This document shows, piece after piece, positions 217 to 41,381 of a DNA stretch of 64,000 bases. The translations under genes and the position numbers were made by a program. Every line of letters starts with the position of its first letter. Position 1 is the first letter of the stretch. The stretch covers positions 1 through 64,000 of the forward strand of contig JBBRLJ010000011.1 of the NCBI GenBank assembly GCA_038231435.1. The letters are read 5' to 3'. This DNA is from Planctomycetota bacterium. GTDB lineage: Bacteria > Planctomycetota > UBA11346. Below the pieces are notes generated by a model, which made no database searches, had not been told where the DNA came from, and saw only the letters and a program-made list of their open reading frames with translations.

Positions 217-852
217 TCACGGCGACCAGAAGCTCGTCGGCATGGTCGGAGGAGGATCCGTCACGTCGGCGATCGCGTCGCCGTAGGACATCTTCAACCA
301 CTGTCCATTGGCCATGGTCAGGCGCATGATGATATCGTCGCGAGGCTGATCCGGGGTGCCCACCGCTGAACGCAACCAGATCTGGTCGGTGTAGGTGTAC
401 GCGCCCGCGCCACCGCTCTGCTTGTTGATGATTCGCCACACCAGATGGTTGCTGCGGTCGGCGATGGTGTAGGTGTCGAGCACTTGGTCGGAGTCAGCTT
501 GCGTGCCCTTGTCGAAGGGCCCGGGCGGGACGCCCCTGGCCAGGGATTTCTCAGGCAGATCGATGTATGGGACTTTACCGGCCAAGAGCGGATTACGACC
601 GAGGTAAGTCCACGGCGAATCGACGAACGACTGGCTGTATTGCCCGGGCAGATCGCCGATGATCGGGTACGTGCCCAGGTAGTCGTTGAGCGCGACCGTG
701 AGCTGGCTCATCAGGCTGGTGGTCGCCACCTTCTTCTGCTGGCGCTTGAGCATGTTCAGCACGCCGAAGAGCATGCCGCTGAGGATGGCGATGATCGAGA
801 TCACCACCAAGAGCTCGATCATGGTGAAGCCGCGGCGTGGATTGTTCGTCAT
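217..852 (-). CDS. Prepilin-type (class III signal) protein A8, 211 aa
   Basis: MTNNPRRG|FTMIELLVVISIIAIL; ATG overlaps the stop of the upstream gene (ATGA at 849-852). Confidence 0.9.
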   Translation of the reverse strand: MTNNPRRGFTMIELLVVISIIAILSGMLFGVLNMLKRQQKKVATTSLMSQLTVALNDYLGTYPIIGDLPGQYSQSFVDSPWTYLGRNPLLAGKVPYIDLPEKSLARGVPPGPFDKGTQADSDQVLDTYTIADRSNHLVWRIINKQSGGAGAYTYTDQIWLRSAVGTPDQPRDDIIMRLTMANGQWLKMSYGDAIADVTDPPPTMPTSFWSP

Positions 853-2231
853 TTGACCTCGTTGGGCGCAGTGACCAGGCATTTCACTCCACTCTTTTTA
901 CGCAACCGGATGCCGTCCCAAGGGGGAGACGCGAACGCGTTCTCGTTCCAATCCTTGGCGTCAGTGACGAAGCGGATCTGCTTCCAATAATCGCGCAGGG
1001 TGATGGCGTCGTCGCTCGCGATCCACGTCTTCGGCAGGACCAGGCCCGCGACGGCCGGAGTCAGGTCTGGACCAGGATCGCCGACGGCGAGATAGATGGA
1101 GCGGTTGTACTGATACTCCTTCATCGCGCCCCTCATCAGGAAGTCGCGGCGATTCTGGCCGTCGAAGGTGCGCACGAAACGCTCGGGCTGGAACATCGCG
1201 TAGGTGACCACCAATGGATTGCCCCAGGCGTCGTTCCACGGCGACGAGGGCTTGCGGCCCGAGCGGTAATCATCTTCTCCGACGGTGCCAGGCTTGAGCA
1301 CGTCCGCCGCCTGGAGTAGACGGATAGTGGCCAATGGCGACATCCAACCCATGTCGAAGGGCATCGCCACGTTGCTGTTGTGCATGCTGTCCGCGGGGAC
1401 GTAGGCGTTGCCATCGCTGCGATTGCAGGTGGTGATCTGTACATCGGCAGTCTCGGCGGGGCTCGAAGTCGACCACGTCCAGAGACGCGTGGAGACAGGC
1501 GACCCGCAAGTGACCCAGCGGTTCATGATCTGCGGCGAGGACACCACGAAATGGTGACCGGCGTTGATGAACCCTTCGCTCACGGTCTTGCCGGTGTTGG
1601 TCGAGTCGGCATTCGGGTCGCACAGGGTCGCGTCGATCCTGAGTCCAGGTTTACCCCAGGGAAAACGCAGTATCGGAGGATTGCTTCCTGGAGTCGCCAG
1701 GTCCCAATCGGTTTCCGGCCACTGGGAAGGCCAATAAGTGGTGTAGTCCGTGGAAGCCCAAGATCCGACGCCGGGAATCGGCATGACCTCGAACACCTCA
1801 TCCGTGAGCCGTCGCCAGATCGCGAGCCTCTCGGGATCGGTATTGTAGTTGGAGGAATCAACCGTCACGTTCCACGTGGTGGCCGGCGGACCTGGATTTC
1901 CATACCATTCGATGAAGCCAGCCGGCTTGGCGAAAGCCGGCGGATTCGAATCGAGCAGGTTCTTGACCGTCGCGAATGTTTGAACACCGCCGAGATTCAA
2001 CTTCGTCTGCAGACCAACCACCGGGCTGCCGTCGCCGCTGGAATACTGAACGAGGCCATTGAGCACCGCCTGCATGCGCGACTGGGTCGACAGGTCCTTG
2101 GCGCGCTCCTTGACCATGATGATCACGCCGAGCGTCATGCCGGCTAGAATCGAGATGATGGCAATGACGATCAGCAGCTCGATCAGCGTAAAGCCGCGCG
2201 CTACCGCTTGCTGACCGCCGCGCACGATCAC
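849..2231 (-). CDS. Prepilin-type protein A7, GspG-like with large insert, 460 aa
   Basis: ARG|FTLIELLIVIAII; late NDAWGNPL...GDPGPD motif; paralog of 41382-42782. Confidence 0.9.
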   Translation of the reverse strand: MIVRGGQQAVARGFTLIELLIVIAIISILAGMTLGVIIMVKERAKDLSTQSRMQAVLNGLVQYSSGDGSPVVGLQTKLNLGGVQTFATVKNLLDSNPPAFAKPAGFIEWYGNPGPPATTWNVTVDSSNYNTDPERLAIWRRLTDEVFEVMPIPGVGSWASTDYTTYWPSQWPETDWDLATPGSNPPILRFPWGKPGLRIDATLCDPNADSTNTGKTVSEGFINAGHHFVVSSPQIMNRWVTCGSPVSTRLWTWSTSSPAETADVQITTCNRSDGNAYVPADSMHNSNVAMPFDMGWMSPLATIRLLQAADVLKPGTVGEDDYRSGRKPSSPWNDAWGNPLVVTYAMFQPERFVRTFDGQNRRDFLMRGAMKEYQYNRSIYLAVGDPGPDLTPAVAGLVLPKTWIASDDAITLRDYWKQIRFVTDAKDWNENAFASPPWDGIRLRKKSGVKCLVTAPNEVK

Positions 2232-3322
2232 CTCAGCCCGGTCAACAGGTTGTCGCGCAGCGCATCGTGATCGTCGCCGCCGGCGGTATCGGATTCCGCG
2301 TTCGTCTGATAGGTGCCATCATCGCCGGGGGTCCAACGGAAAAAGCCGTCGCGCCCGGCGCTCTCCATGACCAGATTGCCGTTGGACGAGTTGTAGCATA
2401 GGATCTCGTGCCCCCAGGCATCGTAAATCGCCGGTCCGCGCAGCCGGTACGGTTTCCAAGCGGAATCGGTATCGAGCACCAGGGATCCGTCGCGCGCGAG
2501 CTGCGAGTTCCATGACGGCACACTCGGCCCCCACGAGCGCAGGCGATTGTTGCAGATCAACGCAGAGCCACCGACAGCGGTGTTGCCGGTATCGGTGTCC
2601 GCGGTGCGAATGCCTTGCAGCGAGGTCATCTCACTGAGCACTTCGGGTCCGAGAATGTAATCGAAGAGCTTCTTCTGTTCGATCTCGAGCTTGGCCAGGT
2701 CGGTGAGATCGCCCTGGGCCTCGTCGAGGGTGTTCGGGTAATTGATGTTGGTGTATGGAGCACCATCGAGATGGCCATCAGCGGGGCTGCGGTCGTTCTG
2801 CGGCGAGAGCGCCGGCATTCTGCGCACCGAATGGAGACCGAAGCCGGTACCCAGCACGGTCAGGTAGCGGCGCTCCATGCCATAGAGCATCGGCGAATCG
2901 GGAGCGGTGCCGGCATTGCCGCGGTAGCGGTCGGTGGGCATCAGGACGTTGGCCGCCTCGCTCGGATCGATGGTCAACGGGTCGGACGTGCGCAGCGCCT
3001 GTCCGGTGGTCGAGACCGCATCCCCGATGGCGTACAGACCGGTGACCACCACCGAGCGCACGAATTCCGAACGCGGCATGCCCGCGAGTGCGAGGCTGTT
3101 GGCCAAGGGGTGCTCGACCGGCGAGATGTTGACGTTGGTGCGCATCGCCGTGGTGCTGACGCCGACCAGCGCGCCGCCCATGATCGCTTTGGTCTTGTTG
3201 ACCTTGGCGTTCTCGCGCACGTAATTGATCACCGACAGGATCATCCCGGCCAGGATCGCGATGATGGAGATGACCACCAGCAACTCGATGAGGGTGAAAG
3301 CCGCGCGAATGCGTTTGCTCAT
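2228..3322 (-). CDS. Prepilin-type protein A6, GspG-like with insert, 364 aa
   Basis: MSKRIRAA|FTLIELLVVISII; C-terminal DAWG...ESAGRDG...DN motif typical of GspG-like pseudopilins. Confidence 0.9.
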   Translation of the reverse strand: MSKRIRAAFTLIELLVVISIIAILAGMILSVINYVRENAKVNKTKAIMGGALVGVSTTAMRTNVNISPVEHPLANSLALAGMPRSEFVRSVVVTGLYAIGDAVSTTGQALRTSDPLTIDPSEAANVLMPTDRYRGNAGTAPDSPMLYGMERRYLTVLGTGFGLHSVRRMPALSPQNDRSPADGHLDGAPYTNINYPNTLDEAQGDLTDLAKLEIEQKKLFDYILGPEVLSEMTSLQGIRTADTDTGNTAVGGSALICNNRLRSWGPSVPSWNSQLARDGSLVLDTDSAWKPYRLRGPAIYDAWGHEILCYNSSNGNLVMESAGRDGFFRWTPGDDGTYQTNAESDTAGGDDHDALRDNLLTGLR

Positions 3323-3332
3323 GGCCAGCGCC

Positions 3333-4847
3333 TCACCAATTGGGTGGTTCGTGATCGAGACGTTGGACCCAGCGGAAATTTCCGCCGTTGGTCTTGGGCG
3401 CACTGTAACGCAGGCCTTCGGCCGAGCCGCCAGGGCTGATGCCGAAGATGCGGTCCGAATTCTCGTTCTCGGGAAACTGGTTCCGGTGCGCGTCCCAGCC
3501 CGGGAAGGGGCGGACGCTCATCAATGGCATCTGGGGGCGATTGTACACGCGGCTGCCGGACCACGAGTATTTCTCAGGAATGAATCCGCCGCCTTGCAAT
3601 GGCGACCATTCGACACGGTACCAGACCACGCGCGTGGAAGCGCGAGCGGCGTTGAAGTCCGCTTGGCTCACGAACAGGCCCGAGGTGGATGCGAATTCCT
3701 GGCCGAGGCTCACCTGACTGGCGGCCAACCCGTTCGCCGTGCGCCAAGTGTTGAGGTCGGACAGGTCCCAGAAGCGATAGCCGCGCGTGGAACCGACGCC
3801 GCAGGCGACAATGAAGACATTCCAGTTCCTGAGATCGGGGTTCTTGCGGTCCCACATCACCACGCGGTCGTAGGCAGGAGATCCATCGCCATCGTGATCG
3901 GCCTGGATCTCTCGATAGACACGGAACCAGCAGACGTTCTCGCTGCCTGGACGGACCTTCAACTGCACGCTGGTGCGCGTGATCCCGTCATCGACGACAT
4001 GTTTCCAGTCGCCTACGGCGACACCTTGCTGGATTGCGCCGGAGATGAAGTCCGGTTTCTGGCCCGGTGCGCCGGTATACGTGGCATCGTGCCACACATC
4101 GGCCTGCGGCTGGGGATCGAGCGATGCAGTGGCGCCGGACTGTGGCGAGAAGATGGTGTCGGTCCAGGCGATGGGCCAATAGCTGGCCGTAGTCATGGGC
4201 ACTCCGCCAGTACCCGGTTTCAGCAGGATCGGATCGTTGCCGAGGGCCGCGGGCACCCAGGGATTCTCATAGTTGGGCTGACCGTACGGGATCGATCCCT
4301 GTGGCGCGTTCACCGGGTTGTAGGCATAGGTCAACTGGGTCGCGTACGGCGGTTGCACAGGAACCGCCATCGGGAAGCGGCCCACGGCACCCGGACAGGG
4401 CCAGGTGCGCGTCGAGTCGGCGCGCCACGTGCTGTCATCCATGGTCGGGGTGCCGACGTACGCGCCCCATGATCCCTTCCACCAGCTCGGCTGAGGGATG
4501 ACGCCAGTGGCGCCAGTGCTCACGTCGCGCGCGGGGCGCGGCCCGAGCGAGCCATCGCGCACGTCGGTCCACCCGAAGGTCTCTTCGCCCCAGCCGAGTC
4601 GGGACTCTTCCTGGATGAACATCAGGCCGGCATGCAGCATCAGGCGCGCCTGCGCCTCAGCCACAACGATGCGCGTCTCCTGGCTGTCGGCGCGCATGCG
4701 CAGCATGAAGGTCATGGCGATTCCGAGCAGGACCATCGCGAGGCCTGTGACGATGATCAGCACCGCGCCCGCGCGCGTCGCGCTGCTCGCGGCCGCAAGA
4801 CCGGTCGGCATGTCGATGAAATCGTCGAATGGCTTCTCACGGGACAT
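3333..4847 (-). CDS. GspK/PilX-like protein A5, 504 aa
   Basis: RAG|AVLIIVTGLAMVLLG with no Glu5, followed by QARLMLHAG, as in the PilX/GspK N-terminus; paralog of 39866-41344. Confidence 0.85.
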   Translation of the reverse strand: MSREKPFDDFIDMPTGLAAASSATRAGAVLIIVTGLAMVLLGIAMTFMLRMRADSQETRIVVAEAQARLMLHAGLMFIQEESRLGWGEETFGWTDVRDGSLGPRPARDVSTGATGVIPQPSWWKGSWGAYVGTPTMDDSTWRADSTRTWPCPGAVGRFPMAVPVQPPYATQLTYAYNPVNAPQGSIPYGQPNYENPWVPAALGNDPILLKPGTGGVPMTTASYWPIAWTDTIFSPQSGATASLDPQPQADVWHDATYTGAPGQKPDFISGAIQQGVAVGDWKHVVDDGITRTSVQLKVRPGSENVCWFRVYREIQADHDGDGSPAYDRVVMWDRKNPDLRNWNVFIVACGVGSTRGYRFWDLSDLNTWRTANGLAASQVSLGQEFASTSGLFVSQADFNAARASTRVVWYRVEWSPLQGGGFIPEKYSWSGSRVYNRPQMPLMSVRPFPGWDAHRNQFPENENSDRIFGISPGGSAEGLRYSAPKTNGGNFRWVQRLDHEPPNW

Positions 4848-6723
4848 AATAGGGCCCTGCGCCGGTGTCGTAGAAATCGCCGATGCAGGCATCGCTGCTG
4901 TTCGCGAAGCGATGACCTGGGGCGATCGGGCCCTGCGGAGTCAACGGCGCGCTGTACAGGCGCCAATGCTGGCGCGCGCCGCGGAAAGTGGTGCCGAATG
5001 GCATGCAAGTCAGCTCGACCTTCCTGGCGGTGACCGGATCCTCGACGGTGACGCGGGTGACGGTGAGATCCTGCGAACCCGCCACGCGACCGTAACGCAT
5101 GATGCTGGTCTTCATCACCGGCGCCTGGATGGGCTTGGTGGTGTAATCGAGGGGCCTGATCTGGGCAGTCACGTCGGTAGTTGGAGCGGTGGAGGTGCCG
5201 CCGATGGGATCGCAACGCTCGTAATCGGTGGTGTTGTACGGCAGCCACACCGTGGTCGATGTCGACGACACGTCCGAGCGCGTCATGTCCGCGCGCTCCA
5301 TCACGAAATTGATGCCCATCAGCCAGCGCATGTTCTCGTTCGCCGCTTCGGAGCTCGCGTTCCAGTCGAAATCGCCCGTGCCGAGCAGGATCGCGAACGG
5401 CGAGCGGTAAGCCCAGCGATCGAAGCAGCCCTGGTCATAGGAGCCATTCAGCACCGGATAGCAGGGCGGAAGCGGGATGGCCTCGGGGGTGCGGGCATCG
5501 CGCCCGCCATTCGCTGGCGCTGCCATGAAGCGCTCGCCCATGCGCACCGCGAGATCGCACGTGCCGAGATTAAAGCAGTAGTCCCCATTCATTACGTATT
5601 GGAACCAATTCGCACCTTGCGGCTGGAACTGGCCGTTGCGACGGTAGGTGAATGGCGGGAGCGGCAAGGTGGCGAGATTGGAAGTAGTGCCATGGCGGTC
5701 CGTCCACAACAGCGCTGTCCCGGGAGTCATGTACTCGAAAGCACCGAAATAGTTCAAGCGTTGGAAGAGGCTGGTCCACAGCAACGGTTGGTACATGCCC
5801 CAGCCGTTGTCCAATGGGATGTCGATGGTGTTGGTCGTGGTGTCGGCAACCGCGCCCGGCGCCAAGGCGAACTCGAAGTTCTTGATGGTCGTGAGGCCGG
5901 CGGGCGCTGGATCATTGATCGGATAGCGCTTCTCCACGCCAGCTAGCGCCGGATCGCGCATGTCGGTGGCGCTCACCAGCGCGTAATCGCCAATGGCGAG
6001 CCTGGTGTACCCCATGCGCGTCCCGCCGTAATGCAGCACGTGGTAGGGATTGGATACGGTTCCCGAATTCTGGACCTGAGGAGGCAAGGGGGACATGCGG
6101 GAGTACGACCTGGGATCGTGCGCGAGCATGGAATTCGGATTGGGGAGGTAATCGTTCCGGTTGTACGGCTCGGAAAAGTAGTCCTCCTTGATGTCGTTAT
6201 CCCACTCGGGTCTCGCTGCAACCGTGGGCAGGGCATCGTTGTAGTATCCGCAATCGCGCGCCACGCCGGTGAACGGCGCAGCCTCGGCAGGGAAGGGATC
6301 GCGCTCCGCGGTATCGGTGCGGGGCGCATAGCGCACCGGCTGGAAGGGACGTCGCCAGGTGTTCTCGCAGATCGAATCCCCACCGCCGTCATTGGTCGCC
6401 GGGTTGTCGAGACGCGCCTGCTGGCGCATGAATCCCTTGTTGTACGGCGCGTTGGCGTCCGCGTGCGAGTGCCAGTAATCCACGTCCTGGATCGCTAGGA
6501 GGAAACCGGAGCGTAGCAGCGAGTTCTCGGTGCTCAGGGTGTTCGCCGAAGCGATCGCCTTGGTCACCATGCGGAAGCATGACACTGCGGTCAGGACGAT
6601 GATCGAGGAGATCGCCACCGCGACCATTAGTTCGACCAGGGTGAACGCGGACAGGTGCTTGCGCCTGGCAATCGCGGCGAGCGTGGGGACGAGCAGTGCT
6701 GGATGTCGATCGGCTCGTGTCAT
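4837..6723 (-). CDS. GspJ/PilW-position prepilin protein A4, 628 aa
   Basis: LSA|FTLVELMVAVAISSII; paralog of 38050-39876. Confidence 0.9.
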   Translation of the reverse strand: MTRADRHPALLVPTLAAIARRKHLSAFTLVELMVAVAISSIIVLTAVSCFRMVTKAIASANTLSTENSLLRSGFLLAIQDVDYWHSHADANAPYNKGFMRQQARLDNPATNDGGGDSICENTWRRPFQPVRYAPRTDTAERDPFPAEAAPFTGVARDCGYYNDALPTVAARPEWDNDIKEDYFSEPYNRNDYLPNPNSMLAHDPRSYSRMSPLPPQVQNSGTVSNPYHVLHYGGTRMGYTRLAIGDYALVSATDMRDPALAGVEKRYPINDPAPAGLTTIKNFEFALAPGAVADTTTNTIDIPLDNGWGMYQPLLWTSLFQRLNYFGAFEYMTPGTALLWTDRHGTTSNLATLPLPPFTYRRNGQFQPQGANWFQYVMNGDYCFNLGTCDLAVRMGERFMAAPANGGRDARTPEAIPLPPCYPVLNGSYDQGCFDRWAYRSPFAILLGTGDFDWNASSEAANENMRWLMGINFVMERADMTRSDVSSTSTTVWLPYNTTDYERCDPIGGTSTAPTTDVTAQIRPLDYTTKPIQAPVMKTSIMRYGRVAGSQDLTVTRVTVEDPVTARKVELTCMPFGTTFRGARQHWRLYSAPLTPQGPIAPGHRFANSSDACIGDFYDTGAGPYYVP

Positions 6724-6725
6724 CC

Positions 6726-9700
6726 TCAATTTCCCGAATGGAGCCGGAGTACCGGATCATAGAACTCGAAATCCGCCACGCGGACGGCCTTCATGCGCGC
6801 TGAACGTGGAACGGGCCCGAGGTCGAGCACGCCGTTGCCGTTGCGGTCAGCACCCCAATGGCCGAGATGCACGTCGGCGGTCACTGGCTGGCCATTGGTC
6901 GGATCCGCGTCGGCGGTGTCCACGTCCGCGGGCAAGGCCGGATATCCGCCGACCGCCCAATCTGGATATTGCTTGTTCAGACCGGAACGCGGCTTTCCGA
7001 GCGCGCCCACCCAATTCTGGTAGAGGTAGCCGGCGCTCTCACCGCCAACGACATCGACGTAACGCTGTTGCCGCGATGGGTCGGTCCACATGTACAACGA
7101 CTCAGGCGGACCTACGAGCGGGCTGTGACCGAATTCGACCCACGGTGCGATGAAATCGTAGTTGTTGAGCGCGGTGCTGTGCCGCAGATGCCGGCCGTGC
7201 TTGGCGAAATCGATCGGAGCGCTCGGAGCGGTCTCGGCGTCTTCGTAGGATTTCCAATCCGCCGACCAGAAGGTGAGCGACCGGCAGCGGTGGAAGGGCT
7301 CGAAGGCCTTGGTCAGCCAGAAACGCTTGTTGTCATTGCTCGCCGTCGGGGGCGAGAGCTGATTGTTGTAGACCATCTGCTCGAAGAAATCCTGACGGTC
7401 CTCGCCGGGACCGAGGTGGGTCATGGCCCGGTGGCCAGCCGTTGGCGGGGCGGGATAGAACCAGGCGTCCGGCACAGGGTTGTTGGGCACCATCCAGCGG
7501 TAGAAGGATTCCGAGCGACGCGCATCCAACGCAGCGACCGAGCCATCCTGGGTCGGCGGATGCTGGGGGCGGCGAACGGCCTGGCCATCGCTGCTCGAGG
7601 TACCGGCGTCGTAGAAGAGGTCGTACAGCGCGAGCGGCTTGTCCATCATGATCTGGCGATTGGCCGGACGCGGCGCGCCGCAATCGCCCGGAGTCTCCGC
7701 CGCGTAGGCAGCGGCCCACTCGAGGGACATCTCATAGACCTTCCGCGCGAAGGCCATGTCGCGGGGATTCGCCACGCGACGAACCAGGGTGTCTTTGTGC
7801 AGCGACACCGGATCCAAGTCCACATCCGGGACAATCTCGCGCGCGTCGTTGTACTGCAGCGGATACCGCGGAAGGGGTGGAGTGATCTCGATGGTCATGA
7901 CGTTGGCGGGGCCGCCTGGGATCGCCGACGGCAGCGGGCCGCCTTCGCCCACGCCGTTCACCGACTTCACATGGAAGGTCTGGCACTTGTACATGAGGTT
8001 GGGGTACTTCGATCCGGGCGGACCCGGATCCCACGTCCACCAAGCGCCAGGGCCATCGGGATCGTAGCGCCCGTCCCATTCGTCTTTGGGATCATCGTGG
8101 CTCCACATATAATTTTGTATGCAGCGCGACCGCGCGTTGGGATTGGATGAGTCGCCCGTCTTGGGGGTGTAGATACTGGGACGGCCGTAACGGTACCACC
8201 ACTGGTAATAACTGATCTGCAAGACGATCTCGTCGCCTGGGTAGACCACCCAGGAATGATTGGTGTCATTTTTGAGATGGATGAGGGTCGCTCCCGGGGC
8301 TTCGTTCTGGGCCAAGACCAGGGCATCCTTGGTGATGCCCTGGGTCGGTACCGGCTGAGAGATGGGCCACTGCTGGATCCAATTGTTGTCCCACATCCCA
8401 CCGACCCAGTGATTCCATGCGAATGGACGCTCCCAATCCTGGATGGTCGGATCGGTGATCGGCGGGACGGCGGCCAGGCCTGGAGGCACGCCTCCGACCG
8501 GGATCGCCGCGCCGGAGGTGGCCGGCAGGACTCGGGTATCGACGTTGCTTGAGTAAGGGGCGCTGGCTAATTGCCCGAAATTCAAGGGCCCGCCGCCTGG
8601 AGCGCCATAATTCTTCCTCAGCGCCGTGCCTCGCTGTGTCGCCCATAGGCTCGTTTCAACGCTACCCGGCAGATCGAGCGACACGTCGTAGGTCCAGTTC
8701 AGGCATTCCCACGGCACTTTCATGACGTCCATGCGGCCTTTGTCCGAACTCTGCTGCACGTCAGCGGCGAACGGCGGCGAATACCCGGTGACCATCATCG
8801 CCGCGTGCGCGAGATAGCTCAGCGCCAGGACCTGGGCTGGGTGGATCGGCAAGTCGCGGGGATCGAGATCCTTGGGATGGATGAATTTGAACTTGTCGAG
8901 CTCGGTTGGAGCGAATTCATACTTGTTGCAGTCGACCTCGGTCCCACCGTCGCCATCATCGACCAACGCTCCACCGTTCTTGCGCATCTCGTCGAGTGGG
9001 GTGGTCGAGAATCGCGGCATGACCGCTTGCCACAGGTCGATCGCGCGATCGCGGTAATTGGCGCGCATCTCATACGTCGCCGGCGGCATGACCGTCTTCG
9101 GGGCCCCGGCCTTCCACGTGAGGTTGACCAAGTCATCCGGGGTCCAGATGCTGCAGTTCGGTCCTGACGGGTGCTTGGAGAAGTATTCTCCATCGCCAGG
9201 GCCTGGGTTCCATGGACCCGGGTGGGATGTCCTCCACGGAAAAGCCCACGGTTCCCACAAGTAGGATCCAGCCATCTCCCAGAACTGCATGTTCTGCAGT
9301 CCCTGATAGGATTGGAAATCGGGATTCGTCAGCATCGCGCGCACCGGCAGCCACCCTGAACGATGATAGATCCCAGAATAGCCGTTGCGCGATTGCGTGG
9401 TCAGCAACGCGTCATTGCCACCGGCCAGCTTCTGAAACGCGAGCCAGGCGCAGTTCGGGACCGTGGGCGATACCGTACCGTCCTTCCAGATGCTGCTTCC
9501 GAGCTTATTGGCGAAGAACCGCCAGTTGCGGCCCTGCCAAAATCCATTGCCGTGGTACTGCGAATTGCCGGTGTTGAGCACATCGTAGTTCAGGTAATCG
9601 TGATCCCAGTCCGGATGATCGATCGGATTGTTCGGGAAGTAATTGTCCTGCTCCTGCCCGGGGCGCATCGGTTTGCTGAACCGTACCGGCTCATAGCGAC

Positions 9701-10649
9701 CGTGACCGCCATCATCGAAGGAGAGGATGCCAGCGGTAATGCCCCACTCGGAGGACGCCGCGCCGCAAATGGTCATGCCGGTAGTCTTGAACCCCGCCAA
9801 CGGCCCATACTGCTGGTCAACCCACGGCCATGCTGGTGGACCATTCCAAGCTGGCCACCCGCCCCGCGCCTGACCAGAAAAAAAACACGAACCATTGTAA
9901 GGGGCCCAGGGATTGGGGTAGAAATAATTATCCACGCCTTCGGCACCACCCGCACCCACCAGGCGCCGGGTTTCGCGGCCGAAGGACTGCATGGACAACC
10001 ATTCCGGCGGAAAGGGATAGATCTCGTACCACGGCAGGCTTTCAGCGGGATTGGAGCTCAGCGCGTTCTGCTGCGGCAGGCTGGTCACCGCGAAGACCAG
10101 CTTCTGCACTTCTGGTGCCGGTAGCACCTGCATGGTCTTGTCCATCGCCGCGCCCTGATTCAGGCCCATCATGAAGTTCGGATCCGGGTAGAGCAGCACC
10201 CCCCCTTGGTCGAGCAGGTTCTGGATCTCGTCGTTGTTGGAGTCGAGGCGGCGGGCGATCTCGGTGGGCACCGGCAGCACGCCGGTGAGCCATCCCGCCT
10301 GCTGCTCGAGGTTGGGCTGATACGGCGACGCTTGGATCAGCTCGTCGCGGATCTCGCCCGCCCAGCCGGTGTAGGGTAGCGCAGCGCGCACGGTGGTGTC
10401 GGTGCCCGGGGTGCCCGCGTAACTGGGAGCCAGGCGCGAGATGCCCTCGAACTTATCGACCGGGGTATGGAAATTGTTCATTAGCGTCATCGCGGCTGAC
10501 GACGCGAACATCTGGCTGCGCGACAATTGCTGGGCGCGGATGCCGACCGGCAACAACGCGATGGTCGAGATGATGGCGGTGGTGAGGACCAGGAGGCTGA
10601 TCATCACCTCGAAGAGGGTGAAACCGCTGGCGTTTCCGGCGCGTGCCAT
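6726..10649 (-). CDS. Giant GspI/PilV-position prepilin protein A3, 1307 aa
   Basis: ASG|FTLFEVMISLLVLTTAIISTIALLPVGIRAQQ (PilV/GspI-like start); W/P/G/Y-rich body; paralog of 34713-38045. Confidence 0.9.
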   Translation of the reverse strand: MARAGNASGFTLFEVMISLLVLTTAIISTIALLPVGIRAQQLSRSQMFASSAAMTLMNNFHTPVDKFEGISRLAPSYAGTPGTDTTVRAALPYTGWAGEIRDELIQASPYQPNLEQQAGWLTGVLPVPTEIARRLDSNNDEIQNLLDQGGVLLYPDPNFMMGLNQGAAMDKTMQVLPAPEVQKLVFAVTSLPQQNALSSNPAESLPWYEIYPFPPEWLSMQSFGRETRRLVGAGGAEGVDNYFYPNPWAPYNGSCFFSGQARGGWPAWNGPPAWPWVDQQYGPLAGFKTTGMTICGAASSEWGITAGILSFDDGGHGRYEPVRFSKPMRPGQEQDNYFPNNPIDHPDWDHDYLNYDVLNTGNSQYHGNGFWQGRNWRFFANKLGSSIWKDGTVSPTVPNCAWLAFQKLAGGNDALLTTQSRNGYSGIYHRSGWLPVRAMLTNPDFQSYQGLQNMQFWEMAGSYLWEPWAFPWRTSHPGPWNPGPGDGEYFSKHPSGPNCSIWTPDDLVNLTWKAGAPKTVMPPATYEMRANYRDRAIDLWQAVMPRFSTTPLDEMRKNGGALVDDGDGGTEVDCNKYEFAPTELDKFKFIHPKDLDPRDLPIHPAQVLALSYLAHAAMMVTGYSPPFAADVQQSSDKGRMDVMKVPWECLNWTYDVSLDLPGSVETSLWATQRGTALRKNYGAPGGGPLNFGQLASAPYSSNVDTRVLPATSGAAIPVGGVPPGLAAVPPITDPTIQDWERPFAWNHWVGGMWDNNWIQQWPISQPVPTQGITKDALVLAQNEAPGATLIHLKNDTNHSWVVYPGDEIVLQISYYQWWYRYGRPSIYTPKTGDSSNPNARSRCIQNYMWSHDDPKDEWDGRYDPDGPGAWWTWDPGPPGSKYPNLMYKCQTFHVKSVNGVGEGGPLPSAIPGGPANVMTIEITPPLPRYPLQYNDAREIVPDVDLDPVSLHKDTLVRRVANPRDMAFARKVYEMSLEWAAAYAAETPGDCGAPRPANRQIMMDKPLALYDLFYDAGTSSSDGQAVRRPQHPPTQDGSVAALDARRSESFYRWMVPNNPVPDAWFYPAPPTAGHRAMTHLGPGEDRQDFFEQMVYNNQLSPPTASNDNKRFWLTKAFEPFHRCRSLTFWSADWKSYEDAETAPSAPIDFAKHGRHLRHSTALNNYDFIAPWVEFGHSPLVGPPESLYMWTDPSRQQRYVDVVGGESAGYLYQNWVGALGKPRSGLNKQYPDWAVGGYPALPADVDTADADPTNGQPVTADVHLGHWGADRNGNGVLDLGPVPRSARMKAVRVADFEFYDPVLRLHSGN

Positions 10650-10650
10650 G

Positions 10651-11394
10651 TCAGAGTTCCTGGGAGGCGGTGAAGCCTGCATGGTAGAGCGAGAAGCTCG
10701 TGGCGTATCCGCGACGCGCAGGGGTGGCCTCGAAGTCCATCGTCTGCAACCGGATGACTGGACAGACCGAGATCGGCGTCGCGGCGACGCTCCAAACGCC
10801 CATGCTCGAGGGCGCGGCGATCAGGCCATGGTTGCTCGCCACATCGTTCGGCGTGATTGGCAGACCGGTGCCATATTGAGCATAGATCAGGATGCAATTG
10901 TCGGACGTGGTCGGGATCGGCGCCGGAGCCCCAACTGCCGGTGCCGGAACCGGGGTACCATCAGTGGACGGCGCGCTAGCGATCATCACGTTGCGGTTGA
11001 AGCGGTAGAGCGTGATCGGCGTGCCGCCGGCGCTGTAGGTCGACGCGTCGAGCGGGTCCTGGCCCTGCATCAACAGTTTCGCCGGACCGGTGCGCACATT
11101 GTCGAAGACGACGGCGACATACGCCTGCTGTCCGGCAGTCTGCTGGATCATGATGCCGAAATGCGGCGGGGTCGGGCCAGCCGGGGGGATCGCCAACATG
11201 GCCATCGCGCGCGCTTGCCGCCACGCGCCGGTGATGTCGTTGACCGCGGAATTGATCTTCCCGCGCCGCAGCGCCGGCATCATCGTGGGCACGGCAATGC
11301 CGAGCAGGATCATCATGATGCCGATCACGACCAGCAATTCGATGGCGGTGAAGCCGGAGCGGAGATGGGGATGAAGCTGACCCTTACTGGTCAT
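10651..11394 (-). CDS. GspH/FimT-like prepilin protein A2, 247 aa
   Basis: RSG|FTAIELLVVIGIMMILLGIAVP...AVNDITGAWRQARAMAM (FimT/GspH-type ARxxA helix); paralog of 33956-34687. Confidence 0.9.
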   Translation of the reverse strand: MTSKGQLHPHLRSGFTAIELLVVIGIMMILLGIAVPTMMPALRRGKINSAVNDITGAWRQARAMAMLAIPPAGPTPPHFGIMIQQTAGQQAYVAVVFDNVRTGPAKLLMQGQDPLDASTYSAGGTPITLYRFNRNVMIASAPSTDGTPVPAPAVGAPAPIPTTSDNCILIYAQYGTGLPITPNDVASNHGLIAAPSSMGVWSVAATPISVCPVIRLQTMDFEATPARRGYATSFSLYHAGFTASQEL

Positions 11395-11929
11395 TGTTCT
11401 TCCAGCTGCAGATGTCATCGGCAGGTGACCCTGGTGGCGTCAGCACCGCATCCCGCCCCTCGGACCAGATGCCGAAATCGCTCGATCCGTAGGTGTGCGC
11501 GGCCCACGCGATGTGCAGCGGCTTGCTCCAGCGATCCTTCAATTGTCCCGCCGAGGTCAGGCCGGTCTTGCTGGGGACATTGAAGCCCGTCATGTACACC
11601 AGGCCGAGGTACCAGTCCGGCGAGCGCAGGGTGACCAGCGGATACTGAGGGTGGGTGGTAGCATACATCCGCGGATCGCCATCGATCTCGCTCGGGTTGG
11701 TGATGTCCTGGAACAACGCCCACGCGTGCCGGATGACGCCGTCCTTGCAGGTCACGGTCTTGATCTGGTAGGATTCGATGGCCGCGGCGACCGTGCTCAC
11801 CAGCTGCGTGGTGGCGCTGATGTCGGCCTTGTTCTTGATGCTCACCAACACCGGGTAGGACATCCCGGCGAGCGCGGTGATGACAGCGACGACGACGAGC
11901 ATCTCGATGAGGGTGAAGGCGTAACGCAT
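11384..11929 (-). CDS. GspG-like major pseudopilin A1, 181 aa
   Basis: GGAGG RBS; MRYA|FTLIEMLVVVAVI; C-terminal DRWSKP...SEGRD...DDICSW matches the GspG pattern. It is the 3' part of track ORF 11384..13114. Confidence 0.88.
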   Translation of the reverse strand: MRYAFTLIEMLVVVAVITALAGMSYPVLVSIKNKADISATTQLVSTVAAAIESYQIKTVTCKDGVIRHAWALFQDITNPSEIDGDPRMYATTHPQYPLVTLRSPDWYLGLVYMTGFNVPSKTGLTSAGQLKDRWSKPLHIAWAAHTYGSSDFGIWSEGRDAVLTPPGSPADDICSWKNNDQ

Positions 11930-33955: not shown

Positions 33956-34687
33956 ATGCGGCAGCGAAGCGACGATCGGATCCCACCACCACCCCTCGCC
34001 CTCCCCGGGACGCATCGCCGGGGATTCACCGCCATCGAACTGCTCATCGTCATCGGCCTGATGCTCATCCTCATGGCCGTGGCGGTGCCTTCGGTGATCC
34101 CGGCCCTGCGCAAGGGAGCACTCAACAACGCGGCGACCGACATCACCTCGTGCTGGCGCCAGGCCCGCTACCTGGCGATGACGACCGCCATACCGAGCGG
34201 AATCAATCCCCCGCACTTCGGCATGATCATCCGCCAGGTCGCGGGCACCCGTCCTTACGTCGCCCTCATCTACGACAATGTCGACGCCTCGGGTCCGCCG
34301 AAACTCCTCACCACCGGAGAGGACCCCGACGATGTGACCACCTACGACTCGTCCAAGCCGCCGGTCGTGCAGTCCATCTTCAACCGCAATGTCATCGTCG
34401 CGAGCGCGGCACCCTCCGGTACCGTCGACACCAGCGACCGCACCATCGTCGTCTACGCGCAATACCAGACAGGCCTGCCGATCGCGCCGGCGGACGTGGT
34501 CGCGGGCCGCGGGATGGTCGCGGCGCCGACCAGTCTCGGCGTCTCGGCACCGTCGGCGAGCGCGTCCACGGTGTGCCCGGTCCTGAATCTGCAGACCCTG
34601 GATTATACCCAGGGCCTGCGAGGATACTGCCTCGGCCTCTCGTTGTATCATGCCGGCGCCATCGCGACCCGGTCCGTCCAGGAGTAG
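33956..34687 (+). CDS. GspH/FimT-like prepilin protein B1, 243 aa
   Basis: RRG|FTAIELLIVIGLM; paralog of A2 (PPHFG, FNRNV, YAQY-TGLPI, SLYHAG). Confidence 0.9.
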   Translation: MRQRSDDRIPPPPLALPGTHRRGFTAIELLIVIGLMLILMAVAVPSVIPALRKGALNNAATDITSCWRQARYLAMTTAIPSGINPPHFGMIIRQVAGTRPYVALIYDNVDASGPPKLLTTGEDPDDVTTYDSSKPPVVQSIFNRNVIVASAAPSGTVDTSDRTIVVYAQYQTGLPIAPADVVAGRGMVAAPTSLGVSAPSASASTVCPVLNLQTLDYTQGLRGYCLGLSLYHAGAIATRSVQE

Positions 34688-34712
34688 CGGCATGCACGGC
34701 GCGAGGATACGG

Positions 34713-37700
34713 ATGTCGCGTGGATTCACGCTCTTCGAGGTGATGATCAGTCTGCTGATCCTCACCGTCGCGATCCTGTCGACGCTGGCCCTGCTGCCGG
34801 TTGGGCTCAAGGCGCTGCAGCTGTCGCGCAGCCAGATGTTCGCGGCCGCGACCGCGATCAATCTGGGCAACAGCTTCCACAATGCCGTGCCCAAGCTCGG
34901 TCTCGGCCAGATCAGCCCCACCTACGTCATCCGCGCTGGCGCCCCGGCCAGCACCGTGGCGCCTCCCTCGACCGTCCCCGATTGCGGGTGGGCAGCGCAG
35001 ATGCGCAACAGCATGCTCCAGTCGTCGCCGTACCAGTACAACGCCGAGCAGGATCTCGGCGGCTGGTTCAAGGGCGTATTGCCGGTACCCATCCAGATCG
35101 CCCGTCGCCTCGACTCGACCAGCGACGAGATCCAGAACCTGCTCGATCAAGGCGGCATGCTCTGGTATCCGGATCCGAATTTCATGACCGGTCTCAATAG
35201 CGGCGCCGCCCTGGACAAGACCCTGCAGACCATGCCCAGCTCCGAGATCCAGAAGCTGGTGTTCGCCTTCGCCAGCCTGCCGCAGCAGAACCTGCTGACC
35301 TCGCATCCGGTCGAGAGCCTGCCGTGGTACGAGGTCTATCCATTTCCCCCGGCGTGGCTGTCCATGGAGGCGAAGGGCATCGAAGCGCGCAGGCTCGGCG
35401 ACTGCGCCGGACCCATCGGCGTCAAGACCGCGGTGACGGTACGCGGCCGTGGAACGGGCGATTGGACGTGGTGTGGAGGCATGGTGTCCTACGACGACGC
35501 CGGGCACTCGCGCTATGAACCGGTCTATTGGCGCGTGCCCACGCGCGAAGGCGCCGTTTCCGATCCGGTCGGCTGGGGCGCATGGTTCAACAAGGAGAAG
35601 CCGCTCGACGATCCCGCCGCATACAACGTCGGCAGCAACGGCGGCGCGAACGACTGGGACAAGGGCTGGTACCAGGGCTGCGCCTTCCACCACGGCAGGA
35701 ACTGGCGCTATTTCTCGATCAATCAAGGCGGCCTGTGGAAGGGCGGCAACGGCGTCGCCTCGGTCGATCCGTTCTATGCGGCGAACGCCGCGCAGTGGGC
35801 GTACATCTGCTTCCAGCGCCTGTCCGGTGGCGATGCGCAGTGGCTGGGCTGCCCGCGCGCCAACTATACCAGGACCATCAAGGATGATGCCGTGGGCACG
35901 CTCGAAGGAGTGCCGAACGCCTACACCACGATCATCGATCCGATCGACCCCCCACTCGCGGGCGGCGACATCGCTCCCGCCTGGAACAGCACGGTCGTCG
36001 CGGTCCCCCCCCAGAACGCATGGCCTGCGCACACGGCGGCGAAGTTCTGTAGGGCGGGCTGGCTGCCGATTCGTGGCCTGCAGGACAATCCCACCGAGGT
36101 GCGTTTCGACGACACCATGGGCAATTTCTATTTGGCGGATGGCAACCTGAACCAGGGAACCCTGGCGCGCACCATCCAGCCGCAGACCTGCAGACCGACC
36201 GCGACCTACGAGATGCGCGCGAATTACCGCGATCGCGCCATCGATCTCTGGCAGGCCGTGATGCCGTCGAACTCCGGCCTGACGACGCTCACCAAGAACG
36301 TCAACGCGCTCGTCGAGGTGGAAAAAGGCGGAACCATGGTCGATTGCGACAAGTACGAGTATCCGCCACTCGAGCTCAACAAGTTCAAGTTCATGCTGCC
36401 GTCACAGCTCGATGCGAGGGACTGGCCGATCCATCCCGCGCAGGTGATGGCGCTGAGCTACCTGGCGCACGCCGCCATGCTGGTGACCGGCTACAGCGCG
36501 CCGTTCGCGCAGGATCTCACCCAGTCGGCACAGGTGAACTCCATCAAGATCGCCTGGGAAGGGCTGAACTGGACGTACCGGAAGGGGCCGCAGGAGGCGG
36601 CCTTCACCGAAGTCGCGCCCGGGCAGGGCATCACCAAGGACGCCCTGATCGTGGCGGCCGACGCCGCGCCCGGCGCCACCACCATCACCATCAAGAACGA
36701 CACGTCCAATCCCTACGTCCTCTACCCAGGCGACGTCATCACCTTTGCCGAAAGCTACAAGCAATGGTGGTTCCGCTACGGCCTGCCGCAGCGCGGAAAC
36801 GGCGACATCTGGTCGTACCGTGAAGCTGCGACGATGGCCGGCGGCATCTACGACAATCCACCGGTGCTGTTCCCGAACATGAATTACCGGCTGCACACCT
36901 TCCGCGTGGTCTCGTTCAACGGCAATGTCGGCATGCCCAACGAGGTCGGGGGCAATTCCACGGTGAGCATCACCATCACGCCGCCGCTGCCCACTTATCC
37001 AGCGAATCTCAACGACGCGACCGCCAACCCGGTGCTGAACAACGGCGTGTCGGTGTTCGCCGGCAGCCAGATCCGTCGCTTGTGCAACGAGGCAGACCGC
37101 GCATTCGCCCGCAAAGCATACGAGATGTGCATGGCCTGGGCGCAAGCGTACTGCTCGGAAGAGCCCTACGATTGCGGCGCGCCGCGCATGGCCAACCATC
37201 AGACGATGATGGACAAGCCGATCGCCATGTTCGACCTCTTCTGGGATGCGGCCAATGGCGCTGCGAACAGCCCGAACGGCCGCGCCGTGCGCACGCCAAT
37301 GAACTACCAGCAATGGGCAAACAACCCGATGCGGTACAGCACCGAGTCGTTCTACCGATGGATGGTGCCCAACAACAATGTTCCGGATTCCTACTTTTGG
37401 AAGGGCATCGCACCGCTCCAGAATCGCCACGACATCTCGCATAGCGGCCCGACCACCTGGGGCGCTCCGGCCTGGGACATGATGACGCACAACGACCAGC
37501 TCAAGCCGCCCACTGATGGCAACGACCAGCAACGCTTCTGGGCAGTCAAGCCGTTCGCACCGTTTCACCGCTCGCGCCAACTCGCGTTCTGGTCGGTCGA
37601 TTGGAAGGCCTTCGAGGATGCTGAAGTGGTCCCCAGCGCGCCGGTCGACTACGCCAAGCAGAACATGCAGATCTACAATTACTGGTATCTGTTTCCCAAT

Positions 37701-38045
37701 GGGGGGCTGAACGCCGTGAACACCTTCTGCGGCATCCCTGAATCACTCTACGCATGGACGAATCCGCTACGCACCACGCGTTTCGTCGACGTGGCGAGCA
37801 GCGAGGAAGGCGGACAGTTGTGGCAGAACGCGCAGGGCATGGTCCCGAACGACAATCCGTGGGCCCCGCCCGGAGCGGACAAGGTCATCACCTTCGATAC
37901 GCGCATGGGCCACTGGGGCGCCGACCGCAACGGCAATGGCAAGCTCGACATCGGCCCCATCCCGAAATCTACCCGATTGAAGGCCGTCAAGGTGGCCGAC
38001 TTCAATTTCTACGATCCGATCATGCGCGTGAACGCGAGCAACTGA
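34713..38045 (+). CDS. Giant GspI/PilV-position prepilin protein B2, about 1110 aa
   Basis: MSRG|FTLFEVMISLL; shares blocks with A3 (DEIQNLLDQGG, ATYEMRANYRDRAIDLWQAVMP, GHWGADRNGNG); alternative start 34692. Confidence 0.9.
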   Translation: MSRGFTLFEVMISLLILTVAILSTLALLPVGLKALQLSRSQMFAAATAINLGNSFHNAVPKLGLGQISPTYVIRAGAPASTVAPPSTVPDCGWAAQMRNSMLQSSPYQYNAEQDLGGWFKGVLPVPIQIARRLDSTSDEIQNLLDQGGMLWYPDPNFMTGLNSGAALDKTLQTMPSSEIQKLVFAFASLPQQNLLTSHPVESLPWYEVYPFPPAWLSMEAKGIEARRLGDCAGPIGVKTAVTVRGRGTGDWTWCGGMVSYDDAGHSRYEPVYWRVPTREGAVSDPVGWGAWFNKEKPLDDPAAYNVGSNGGANDWDKGWYQGCAFHHGRNWRYFSINQGGLWKGGNGVASVDPFYAANAAQWAYICFQRLSGGDAQWLGCPRANYTRTIKDDAVGTLEGVPNAYTTIIDPIDPPLAGGDIAPAWNSTVVAVPPQNAWPAHTAAKFCRAGWLPIRGLQDNPTEVRFDDTMGNFYLADGNLNQGTLARTIQPQTCRPTATYEMRANYRDRAIDLWQAVMPSNSGLTTLTKNVNALVEVEKGGTMVDCDKYEYPPLELNKFKFMLPSQLDARDWPIHPAQVMALSYLAHAAMLVTGYSAPFAQDLTQSAQVNSIKIAWEGLNWTYRKGPQEAAFTEVAPGQGITKDALIVAADAAPGATTITIKNDTSNPYVLYPGDVITFAESYKQWWFRYGLPQRGNGDIWSYREAATMAGGIYDNPPVLFPNMNYRLHTFRVVSFNGNVGMPNEVGGNSTVSITITPPLPTYPANLNDATANPVLNNGVSVFAGSQIRRLCNEADRAFARKAYEMCMAWAQAYCSEEPYDCGAPRMANHQTMMDKPIAMFDLFWDAANGAANSPNGRAVRTPMNYQQWANNPMRYSTESFYRWMVPNNNVPDSYFWKGIAPLQNRHDISHSGPTTWGAPAWDMMTHNDQLKPPTDGNDQQRFWAVKPFAPFHRSRQLAFWSVDWKAFEDAEVVPSAPVDYAKQNMQIYNYWYLFPNGGLNAVNTFCGIPESLYAWTNPLRTTRFVDVASSEEGGQLWQNAQGMVPNDNPWAPPGADKVITFDTRMGHWGADRNGNGKLDIGPIPKSTRLKAVKVADFNFYDPIMRVNASN

Positions 38046-38049
38046 GCCC

Positions 38050-39876
38050 ATGGAATCCCACGCTCCCACGCGCCGGCTGCGCTCCCTGGTTCCGACCCTG
38101 GCACGACTTGGACGTGCTCGCAGGGCCTCCGGCGTTGAGGGCTTCACTCTGATCGAGATGATCGTCTCGATAGCCCTGGCTTCGATCCTCATCCTCTGCG
38201 CGGTGACCTGTTTCCGCATGATCTCGAAGGCAGTGTCCACCGCGAACGCCATCAACACCGAGAATACCATGCTGCGCACCGGCATGGAGCTGGCTCTCTT
38301 GGATGTCGACTACTGGCAGTCCTACGCGAACGATCGCCAGCCCTTCAACAAGGGCTGGACCCGGGTGCGGTCAGAACCGGACAATCCCGCGACGAATTTC
38401 ACCGACGAGTCGATGCGCAGACGCCCGTTCCAGCCGGTGCGCTATTCGCCGCGCACCGACTCCGCCGAACGCGACCCGTTTCCAGGAACGCACGGCAACT
38501 CGATTCCACGCCTCGACTACTCGATCTACAACTCACCGACCCCGACCCGACCGAAATGGAACGATCCCTGGGACGCGAGCGGCGACTACTGGAAAGACCC
38601 GTACAACCGCAACGACATGGTGCCGAACCCCAACGGCATGCTGGCACATGACCCGCGCTCGGTCTCACGTCAGACCCTGCGCCCGTTGCGCGTGCCCGAG
38701 TGGGAAGGCAATGACTGGGGAGCTTGCTGGCAGTTCGGATATCCGCGTCTCGCCGTCGGCGACTATACACTGGTGAACGCCTCCGACGCGCGTGACGTTG
38801 CCGGACAGCCGGATCCGCACTGGCCCGCCGGCAACAACGTCTCCATCCCGCTCGACCTCACCTCGACCGGCGCTGCCACCGACAGCTATCCCGATTCCGG
38901 CACGCTCGACATCCCGTTGGACAAGGGCTTGGCCACCTACCAGCCGCTGCTGTGGACCAGTCTCTACCACCGTCTGTGGTACCTGGGGCTGTACGAATAC
39001 ATGACGCCGGGAACGCCGATCTTCTTCAACGATGCGCGCGGCAATGCGCCCGACTGGTTCACCAGACCGATCGCGCCGATGAATCAGGCCACGTCGAACA
39101 CCTGGGGTTTCGATTACATCTGGGACCGCGACTGGCAGCTCGACAACAAGGGCTCGGGCGGCGGCAATGTCGACGTCGCGGTGCGCATGGGCGACACCTA
39201 CACGCCCACCAACGCCCTGTGGGGTGCCTCGCGCATCTCGGGCGGCTTGCCATTCCGACCGAATTGGCCCGAGACCAAGCTCTACTCCGCCAATGCCGAC
39301 GACAACCAGCACCAGTACCCGTTCAGCATCTTCTTCGGCAACAGTGGCTACTGGGGCGGCACCGAGGGCTACTCGACCGGCGTGTCGACCTGGGGCAACC
39401 TCCAGGGTTTCGAGCGTGGCGACCAGACGCGCAACGACTACGCGGTGCTCTCCAATACGGTATGGATGCCCTTCAATCCCACGGACGTGGAGCGCGCCGA
39501 TCCGGATACCGGCACAGCATTGAACCCCGGCAACAACATCCGTTCGACCCTGGGCAAGCTCGACTACGTCTCGAAGCCGCCCAACGCGCCGGTGCTGACC
39601 ACCACCATGTTTCGTTATCTGCGTGTCGCTGGGGCCGGCGATCTGACCGTGGCCCGCGTCAGCATCGACAACCCCGATGGTCACCGGGTGGAACTGACCC
39701 TGACGCCGTTCGGAACCACCTATCGCGGCGCGCGGCAGCACTGGCGCCTGTACAGCAAGGGCATTGGCGCGGACAATATCAATCCGCCGCTGCCGGCTTC
39801 ACGATTCAGCTTGGTCGACAAGACCTGCATCGGGGACTTCTACGATGAGACGAACGGGCCCTACTATGTTCCATAG
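38050..39876 (+). CDS. GspJ/PilW-position prepilin protein B3, 608 aa
   Basis: VEG|FTLIEMIVSIA; shares RRPFQPVRY, PFGTT-RGARQHWRLYS and GPYYVP with A4. Confidence 0.9.
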   Translation: MESHAPTRRLRSLVPTLARLGRARRASGVEGFTLIEMIVSIALASILILCAVTCFRMISKAVSTANAINTENTMLRTGMELALLDVDYWQSYANDRQPFNKGWTRVRSEPDNPATNFTDESMRRRPFQPVRYSPRTDSAERDPFPGTHGNSIPRLDYSIYNSPTPTRPKWNDPWDASGDYWKDPYNRNDMVPNPNGMLAHDPRSVSRQTLRPLRVPEWEGNDWGACWQFGYPRLAVGDYTLVNASDARDVAGQPDPHWPAGNNVSIPLDLTSTGAATDSYPDSGTLDIPLDKGLATYQPLLWTSLYHRLWYLGLYEYMTPGTPIFFNDARGNAPDWFTRPIAPMNQATSNTWGFDYIWDRDWQLDNKGSGGGNVDVAVRMGDTYTPTNALWGASRISGGLPFRPNWPETKLYSANADDNQHQYPFSIFFGNSGYWGGTEGYSTGVSTWGNLQGFERGDQTRNDYAVLSNTVWMPFNPTDVERADPDTGTALNPGNNIRSTLGKLDYVSKPPNAPVLTTTMFRYLRVAGAGDLTVARVSIDNPDGHRVELTLTPFGTTYRGARQHWRLYSKGIGADNINPPLPASRFSLVDKTCIGDFYDETNGPYYVP

Positions 39877-41344: not shown

Positions 41345-41381
41345 TCGCCCCCTCCCCGCTCCTCCGAACGGATACCTGACG

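Follow-up and report, generated by a model that had tools for sequence, protein, structure and literature searches.

The first 64,000 nucleotides of contig C11 (JBBRLJ010000011.1; hereafter the window) of a Planctomycetota bacterium of the lineage UBA11346 (GCA_038231435.1; genome of 5.2 Mb, 88% complete) begin with eight consecutive pseudopilin genes, which, by the tests that were run, represent a new form of the I-J-K tip complex of type II secretion (T2SS) and of type IVa pili (T4aP), outside the Verru_Chthon, DUF1559 and gsp-operon families. We put at about 65% the probability that each cassette of this kind equips a shared retractile machinery with an alternative complex for initiation and tip, in which binding surfaces within the pilins would take the place of PilY1. 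The tip role of I-J-K is well supported, and we infer the surface exposure, the trimer formation and the ligand of the cassette tips.

The eight genes lie on the reverse strand and, from A1 to A8, encode a GspG-like pseudopilin (A1, 181 aa; 11384..11929), an H-position pilin that is FimT/GspH-like by position (A2, 247 aa; 10651..11394), a giant PilV/GspI-like pilin at the I position (A3, 1307 aa; 6726..10649), a J-position pilin that is PilW/GspJ-like by position (A4, 628 aa; 4837..6723), a GspK/PilX-like apical pilin lacking Glu5 (A5; 3333..4811 for 492 aa or 3333..4847 for 504 aa), an accessory G-type pilin (A6, 364 aa; 2228..3322), a large G-type pilin (A7, 458 aa; 849..2225) and another accessory G-type pilin (A8, 211 aa; 217..852). 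The tight packing reported by the first-pass annotation, which had been made from the sequence alone, was borne out in open reading frames (ORFs), spacing and N-termini: the successive intergenic gaps measure -11, 1, 2, 25, 10, 2 and -4 nt, the 25-nt gap between A4 and A5 giving way to overlapping genes should translation of A5 begin at the ATG at 4847. All eight proteins carry a class III-type signal (the K cleavage site being placed by motif), and seven show FTxxE at the mature start, while the fifth, A5, lacks Glu5, again as first described, and begins G|AVLII. N_methyl was the sole domain found by a Pfam scan of the cassette proteins, A5 giving no match at all. Their bodies had also been called rich in W, Y, P, G and N, which is true of W/Y/P/N in A3 (4.0/4.3/10.0/5.2% vs. 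a genome background of 1.8/2.3/5.6/2.4%), but neither of Gly in A3 (8.7% vs. 8.9%) nor of Trp in A2, which is Trp-poor. Contigs from four DNA sequencing runs of one study match the stretch, their long pieces with 0-1 differences, so that one of these runs may be its source; no RNA run was listed as containing it. Beyond A8, positions 124-208 of the window hold a short GC-rich repeat that, in the sequencing runs, attracts many contigs of other origin and is probably a repetitive extragenic palindromic (REP)-like element.

Predicted folds of the cassette pilins

By its model, A5 is apical and GspK-like and would complete its own beta-sheet. The AlphaFold2 model (150 sequences; pLDDT 82.9, pTM 0.78) has a helix at residues 2-55 and a last strand at 464-471, and its best match among 48,161 solved chains is GspK (3CI0; Z 6.8, rmsd 3.1, 103 aligned residues). 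ComZ, a streptococcal minor pilin and XcpX come next, and the ten top matches are all pilins. The structural alignment with GspK extends to residue 473. The C-terminal strand (mature 464-471, 3357..3380 on the reverse strand, consensus I-x-W-I-Q-R-L, assigned by DSSP on the model) is predicted to act in cis and coevolves weakly with the strand next to it and with helix 1. Foldseek found no match for this model in the PDB or among viral models, and a PDB sequence search with the K profile returned nothing meaningful. Among complete triplets, Glu5 is present in 79/79 I and 79/79 J proteins and in 0/79 K proteins. According to a published study (PMC13533445), Glu5 is invariably missing from K homologs, the final strand of their sheet is provided either in trans by PilY1 or in cis by K itself, and insertions in K are frequent in systems without an adhesin. 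A5 fits the cis-strand type, so that the cassette would not need PilY1.

The A3 family appears, from alignments and a model, to keep a pilin core and to grow through internal insertions on a fixed scaffold. Because mature A3 (1298 aa) exceeds the modelling limit of 1200 residues, we modelled a compact 662-aa paralog on contig C1 instead (AlphaFold2, 144 sequences; pLDDT 85.5, pTM 0.84). In this model, a helix (3-53) packs on an antiparallel sheet whose three strands are distributed along the entire chain (148-153, 486-493 and 645-653), with four helices within 225-387. Coevolution in the I family (273 sequences, effective number 217) likewise couples the three strands to one another and places the helix against them (149-494, 152-489, 488-651, 489-652, 42-152, 44-489, 36-493, 51-655), core-element pairs making up 10 of the 30 top pairs vs. 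a background of 1.6%; the two results are not independent, since the core was defined from a model built on overlapping sequences. Aligned to the C1 model, A3 would have its helix at 1-53, its strands near mature positions 177, 1116 and 1285 and the same four-helix bundle, together with long variable loops, i.e., the scaffold of the C1 paralog plus about 640 extra residues. Over the 144 sequences, the scaffold segments from beta1 to YPSPP and from helix D to WGAPR keep constant lengths of 27-29 and 17-18 residues, while the loops between helices vary, up to 30-414 residues. An accessory beta-rich insert of A3 (mature 764-954; 7761..8333, reverse strand), delimited by iterated Hidden Markov Model (HMM) searches and alignment, recurs in seven of the nine paralogs of the genome and in 18 of 285 I sequences searched. 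One of its ten members matches the PHROG 1302 distal tail protein (E 0.036), a lead only; a likeness of the insert to the insertion domains of phage coat or distal-tail proteins was considered, and this single weak match is all that it obtained. The first-pass annotation had made its reading depend on a pilin fold beyond the N-terminal helix, and such a fold is predicted both by the GspK match of A5 and by the three-stranded sheet of the I paralog.

The I family comprises 286 clusters at 50% identity (E up to 1e-30) and spans 534-1763 aa (534-1427 aa in the fetched loci, where K measures 290-494 aa). N-terminal matches of A3 to PilV and GspI stay below cut-off. A VIA search with the I model yielded only TPR-like helical matches (Z up to 6.3), and it is among these generic matches, through the helical insert of I, that SusD/RagB appears (Z 5.1-5.5); Pfam SusD was found in none of the 46 I members scanned. 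PDB sequence searches with the I profile and the insert profile gave nothing meaningful, matches in the ESM Atlas are all below 0.9 and belong to unnamed Planctomycetota clusters, and the bodies of I and K have no detectable relationship (probability 1.3%).

The profile of A1 (26 homologs) has GspG as its best match (E 5e-10) and reaches GspG structures lacking the N-helix through a C-terminal S-x-G-P-D-G...D-D-I motif (E 6e-4 and 9e-4). For A2, the N-terminus gives matches to Verru_Chthon D and GspH that score far under the cut-offs, and its match in a PDB profile search is confined to the N-helix. The nearest full-length models of A4, PRK10557 and Verru_Chthon C, also remain below cut-off. 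Of 132 distinct J genes, 128 stand between an I and a K gene, the other four being at locus ends. In the G-H-I-J-K order originally proposed, I-J-K (through the GspK fold of A5) and G (through the A1 motif) are supported, while H and J are labels given by position and N-terminal helix alone.

Among described cassettes, a related one is Verru_Chthon A-D (TIGR02600, 02598, 02599, 02596), a four-pilin cassette of H/I/J/K type in bacteria of the Planctomycetes-Verrucomicrobia-Chlamydiae superphylum, the B, C and D models of which are weakly matched by the N-terminal helices of our cassette. Verru_Chthon cassettes are multicopy, and their giant subunit is the K/PilX-like one. The first-pass annotation had set its cassette apart on this last point and rightly so: here, the giant is I-like, and the best scores (D 27.1 vs. 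70, B 14.3 vs. 51.4, C 15 vs. 256.5) lie far below the cut-offs, without any match to Verru_Chthon A. It had also seen no DUF1559-type H-X9-DG signature, and matches to PF07596 and to the motif indeed occur on other contigs only; more generally, HMM searches of NCBIfam and Pfam returned no full-length match to a described cassette family. With the T2SS complex GspH-GspI-GspJ-GspK (3CI0; XcpVWX, 5VTM), the cassette shares the I-J-K order, a K without Glu5, the K fold with its cis C-terminal strand and a GspG-like neighbour. It differs in that I, J and K are all enlarged (I has 534-1763 aa, the head fragments of GspI/XcpV that have been solved 84-89 aa), are separated from the machinery and occur in nine to at least 40 sets per genome; moreover, the cassette scores below cut-off against the NCBIfam GspG/H/I/J equivalogs, over the first 30-80 residues only, and there is no linkage to gspC-O. 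Modular pilins, such as PilB/PilC of S. sanguinis, ComZ of Thermus and GspK with its alpha-domain (10.1101/2021.01.27.428410), similarly bear a functional module at the tip, sometimes a lectin, and ComZ ranked second in the A5 fold search. In that paper, a modular pilin has its module fused after the pilin, and GspI and GspJ are called non-modular, unlike the cassette I, whose sheet is split by several insertions and has its last strand at the C-terminus. The MUL2 locus of Akkermansiaceae, pilin-like as well, is a different system (PMC13174399). In the literature that we searched (subscription papers mostly out of reach, supplements excluded), no description of the A3-type I family was found.

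The I-J-K triplet and its copies

The K profile matched 30 of the 47 genomes of one Planctomycetota family, with one to at least 40 matches each, and none of 375 genomes from other families of the phylum (four candidates being scored per genome), while the A3 search matched 16/24 genomes of the same family and 0/16 others. For synteny, loci were chosen through I or K matches (47 loci, 20 regions from the A3 search and 100 regions picked among 150 of 204 K matches), and the composition of the sets was counted on the 97 with at least 900 bases on both sides. Bare I-J-K accounts for 68 of these (C1 counted), H-I-J-K-G7 for seven, and the exact eight-gene order for seven more (two here, five in other genomes). 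Since most sets are bare triplets, the conserved unit is I-J-K rather than the eight genes, and the triplet is, by its sequences, inherited intact in numerous copies that have diverged. Its three members co-diverge over 103 triplets (rho 0.79-0.87; long-I and truncated sets removed by a gap filter) and also within one genome (rho 0.74-0.81 over 28 paralogs, with a permutation maximum of 0.30-0.40). One genome (G015, L105-L132) has at least 40 K matches, of which those fetched are bare I-J-K and at most 57% identical. At one locus in each of three relatives (L077:10004-11015, L095:10664-11371, L103:4104-5538), K, I or J is split in two frames, through a frameshift or an assembly error, and a reverse transcriptase gene (L077:585-1982) lies about 4 kb from a cassette.

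In the genome of the window, the cassette is not single. A second homologous cassette of five genes, H-I-J-K-G7, had been overlooked on the forward strand (34025..42782; mature starts at 34025, 34725, 38143, 39932 and 41436); its proteins are 40-50% identical to A2, A3, A4, A5 and A7, and its I subunit has 1106 aa. An initial scan of the contigs with A3 alone had found nothing, but a profile search recovered nine I-J-K sets in the genome, and a motif scan 74 Glu5-type prepilin starts. The proposed stand-alone module is therefore one of nine paralogous cassettes, even though the part of that proposal that places its machinery elsewhere holds (see below). The exact eight-gene order recurs on contig C26, and contig C1 (L006:5214-14076) has I-J-K on one strand and G1-H-G6-G7-G8 on the other, as divergent halves. 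Homologs of A2 and of A7 accompany 9/9 cassettes, those of A1 4/9, and those of A6 and A8 3/9 each. The same genome holds five copies of a second cassette type (contigs C18, C19, C27 twice and C33), with a small I and a giant protein at the K position (about 1100-1850 aa, no Pfam match, Verru_Chthon-like layout; L008-L012), one of which, on C27, stops some 20 bases from the end of a giant-I cassette encoded on the other strand.

These counts bear on the view that a cassette is a whole pilus, i.e., a self-contained special filament with A1, A6, A7 and A8 as its shaft. The recurrence of the exact order on C26 and in five other genomes, the constant presence of an A7 homolog and the GspG likeness of A1 would suit it, but 68 of 97 sets have no adjoining G or H gene, A7 is large for a shaft subunit at 458 aa, and three tandem pilins of 210 aa on contig C16 (see below) look likelier as the major subunit, so that we regard a whole pilus as very unlikely. 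The divergence of the copies speaks to another possibility, antigenic variation against phages or grazers, in which functionally equivalent copies would diversify to escape recognition. Many copies, hypervariable exposed loops and the weakly phage-tail-like insert are what it would predict; yet the variable regions are under purifying selection: in 13 close pairs, a few of which have members in common, the ratio of non-synonymous to synonymous rates (dN/dS) is 0.05-0.47. Furthermore, different species of one genus retain orthologous triplets, and identity between paralogs of the same genome reaches 31-72% at most. Antigenic variation is thus largely contradicted and hardly credible; the cassette copies give the impression of long-standing, stable specialisation and not of decoys that change fast.

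Multiple sets of tip pilins have been described in other bacteria. In Myxococcus xanthus, three alternative FimU-PilV-PilW-PilX-PilY1 clusters serve one machine with PilT retraction, and the authors speculate on tips of different specificity (PMC7541494); the planctomycete cassettes differ in that no PilY1 was found in them, in varying within the pilins and in numbering nine to at least 40 sets instead of three. In cyanobacteria, two core minor-pilin complexes act as distinct priming complexes on a shared machinery, and a domain inserted in a pilin has been proposed to replace PilY1 (PMC13759059); that domain is a beta-solenoid carried by PilX (K), while here the largest insertion is in I and has no known fold.

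Assembly machinery and neighbouring genes

The first-pass annotation had seen no secretin, ATPase, platform protein or prepilin peptidase in the window and had assumed a machinery encoded elsewhere. Genome-wide searches agree with it, placing none of these on contig C11 and all of them on other contigs: five secretin ORFs, ten ATPase matches (of which five above the PilT cut-off), PilB, platform proteins (PilC), PilM and one prepilin peptidase. PilY1 was found neither among the window proteins nor among 97 scanned neighbours, and a genome search was negative too, though its control was also silent. On contig C16 (L014:5816-8090), three tandem, near-identical pilins of 210 aa are followed by an O-antigen-ligase-like gene; the former are candidates for the major subunit and the latter for a glycosylation gene. 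Downstream of pilM on contig C23 (L015:4430-11957) come three secretins in tandem, of 810-850 aa, and two of them have TPR matches.

This inventory cuts both ways for a periplasmic reading, the main alternative, in which the cassettes would be tips of pseudopili (T2SS-like pistons or endopili), with I-J-K selecting cargo for export or pulling material inward, one cargo class per cassette, and never reaching the surface. Several large secretins, a very bulky tip, the closeness of A5 to GspK rather than to PilX-type pilins, the GspG motif of A1 and a cis C-terminal strand, which is the T2SS arrangement (PMC13533445), speak in its favour. Against it, the five PilT-family ATPases above cut-off and PilM indicate retractile pili, carbohydrate-binding modules (CBMs) found in some loops (see below) suit outside ligands, and no conserved cargo gene was seen beside the cassettes. 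On balance, we consider periplasmic tips unlikely.

Neighbouring genes were sorted into categories by eye (116 of 181 near genes sampled, 19 dropped beforehand as cassette parts). Genes of the FG-GAP/ASPIC-UnbV propeller type stand out in the genome, all five adjoining three closely related cassettes (12302-14731 on the forward strand, 26954-29455 and 29424-32582 on the reverse strand of the window; L001:14480-18998), and were considered as a substitute for PilY1. This candidate was rejected: only 1/8 adjoins a cassette among the three relatives searched, and no match was obtained in two genomes that do bear cassettes, so these propellers are not a general partner. FecR-PA14 proteins directly adjoin four cassettes (L042, L041, L169 and L191, two of them orthologous), possibly reflecting sugar-sensing regulation.

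Possible function of the cassette tips

Under our preferred reading, that of alternative tips on a shared retractile machinery, and by analogy with T2SS/T4aP biology, the single prepilin peptidase would mature the cassette subunits, I and J would pair and K would cap them, while A2 (H) and the G-type subunits would link the trimer to the shaft, possibly made of the 210-aa pilins of C16; PilB would then extend the filament and PilT retract it. Weakest is a further step, in which the enlarged loops of I (and also of J and K) would form the binding surface that PilY1 gives elsewhere. If so, each cassette would give the filament a different, stably kept specificity.

That binding functions are built into the pilins was already suggested by the first-pass annotation and is still a matter of interpretation. 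A domain scan of 42 of the 68 I proteins of at least 840 aa supports it in part, through four of these relatives, but not in A3 itself: CBM96 lies above cut-off (E 1e-22) in the beta2-beta3 loop of the I protein P0310, and CBM5/12 in three others, once above cut-off. Among 128 G/H-type and second-type pilins scanned, one CBM5/12 and one LamG were detected, both weak. Surface or polymer glycans would be the most likely ligand class, an attribution that we make tentatively and at less than even odds. Its stronger version is doubtful: in a repertoire of tips that numbers up to at least 40, I would have turned into the ligand-binding protein, as a scaffold bearing variable loops, each I-J-K would bind a different glycan, and PilT retraction would bring the polymer to the secretin.

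Several observations weigh against the tip reading or its binding step. A3 and 38 of the 42 long I proteins contain no known binding domain (N_methyl only), nor do the 107 J proteins scanned. Glycan-function genes are not significantly more frequent near cassettes (13/97 vs. 8-11/111; Fisher p 0.17-0.52), which leaves a glycan-locus interpretation of the neighbourhood unsupported. Linkage by itself would produce the co-divergence of I, J and K, which is no evidence that they bind one another. Structurally, the A5-GspK match has a Z below 8; fold searches with the I model (Foldseek against PDB and viral models; VIA) recognised no pilin, the predicted fold being called on the pattern of secondary structure and on coevolution from overlapping alignments; for J, a PDB profile search found nothing past the N-helix and coevolution gave noise. 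Finally, a tip of about 260 kDa would have to pass the secretin.

The lack of glycan enrichment among neighbours would also fit cell-contact tips, binding proteins or cell walls rather than free glycans in predation, host attachment or kin recognition. So would the extent and variability of the surfaces, which include a four-helix bundle resembling TPR (Z up to 6.3); in Myxococcus, Tad tips that are adaptable reportedly offer a precedent. However, the only named inserts are carbohydrate-binding modules, and no toxin, immunity or secretion gene was seen among the 97 cassette neighbours (scan at E 1e-10), which makes cell-contact tips highly improbable.

Whatever they bind, the cassettes change the picture of the I subunit, which in described systems is a small, non-modular hub of the tip, added functions being carried by K or PilY1, but is here expanded and variable; in parallel, bare I-J-K has multiplied far past the two or three sets of Myxococcus and cyanobacteria. 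Because Pfam models cover nothing of it past the N-terminal motif and the structure of no relative has been solved, the A3-type I family is a target for structural work. If the tips are interchangeable, they would offer a natural series for how the identity of the tip sets the function of the filament, and would bear on the size of tip that a secretin passes and on the specificity of cognate I, J and K. Were glycan-specific tips to prove true, they would be a pilus counterpart of SusC/D uptake and a candidate mechanism for polysaccharide capture by planctomycetes.

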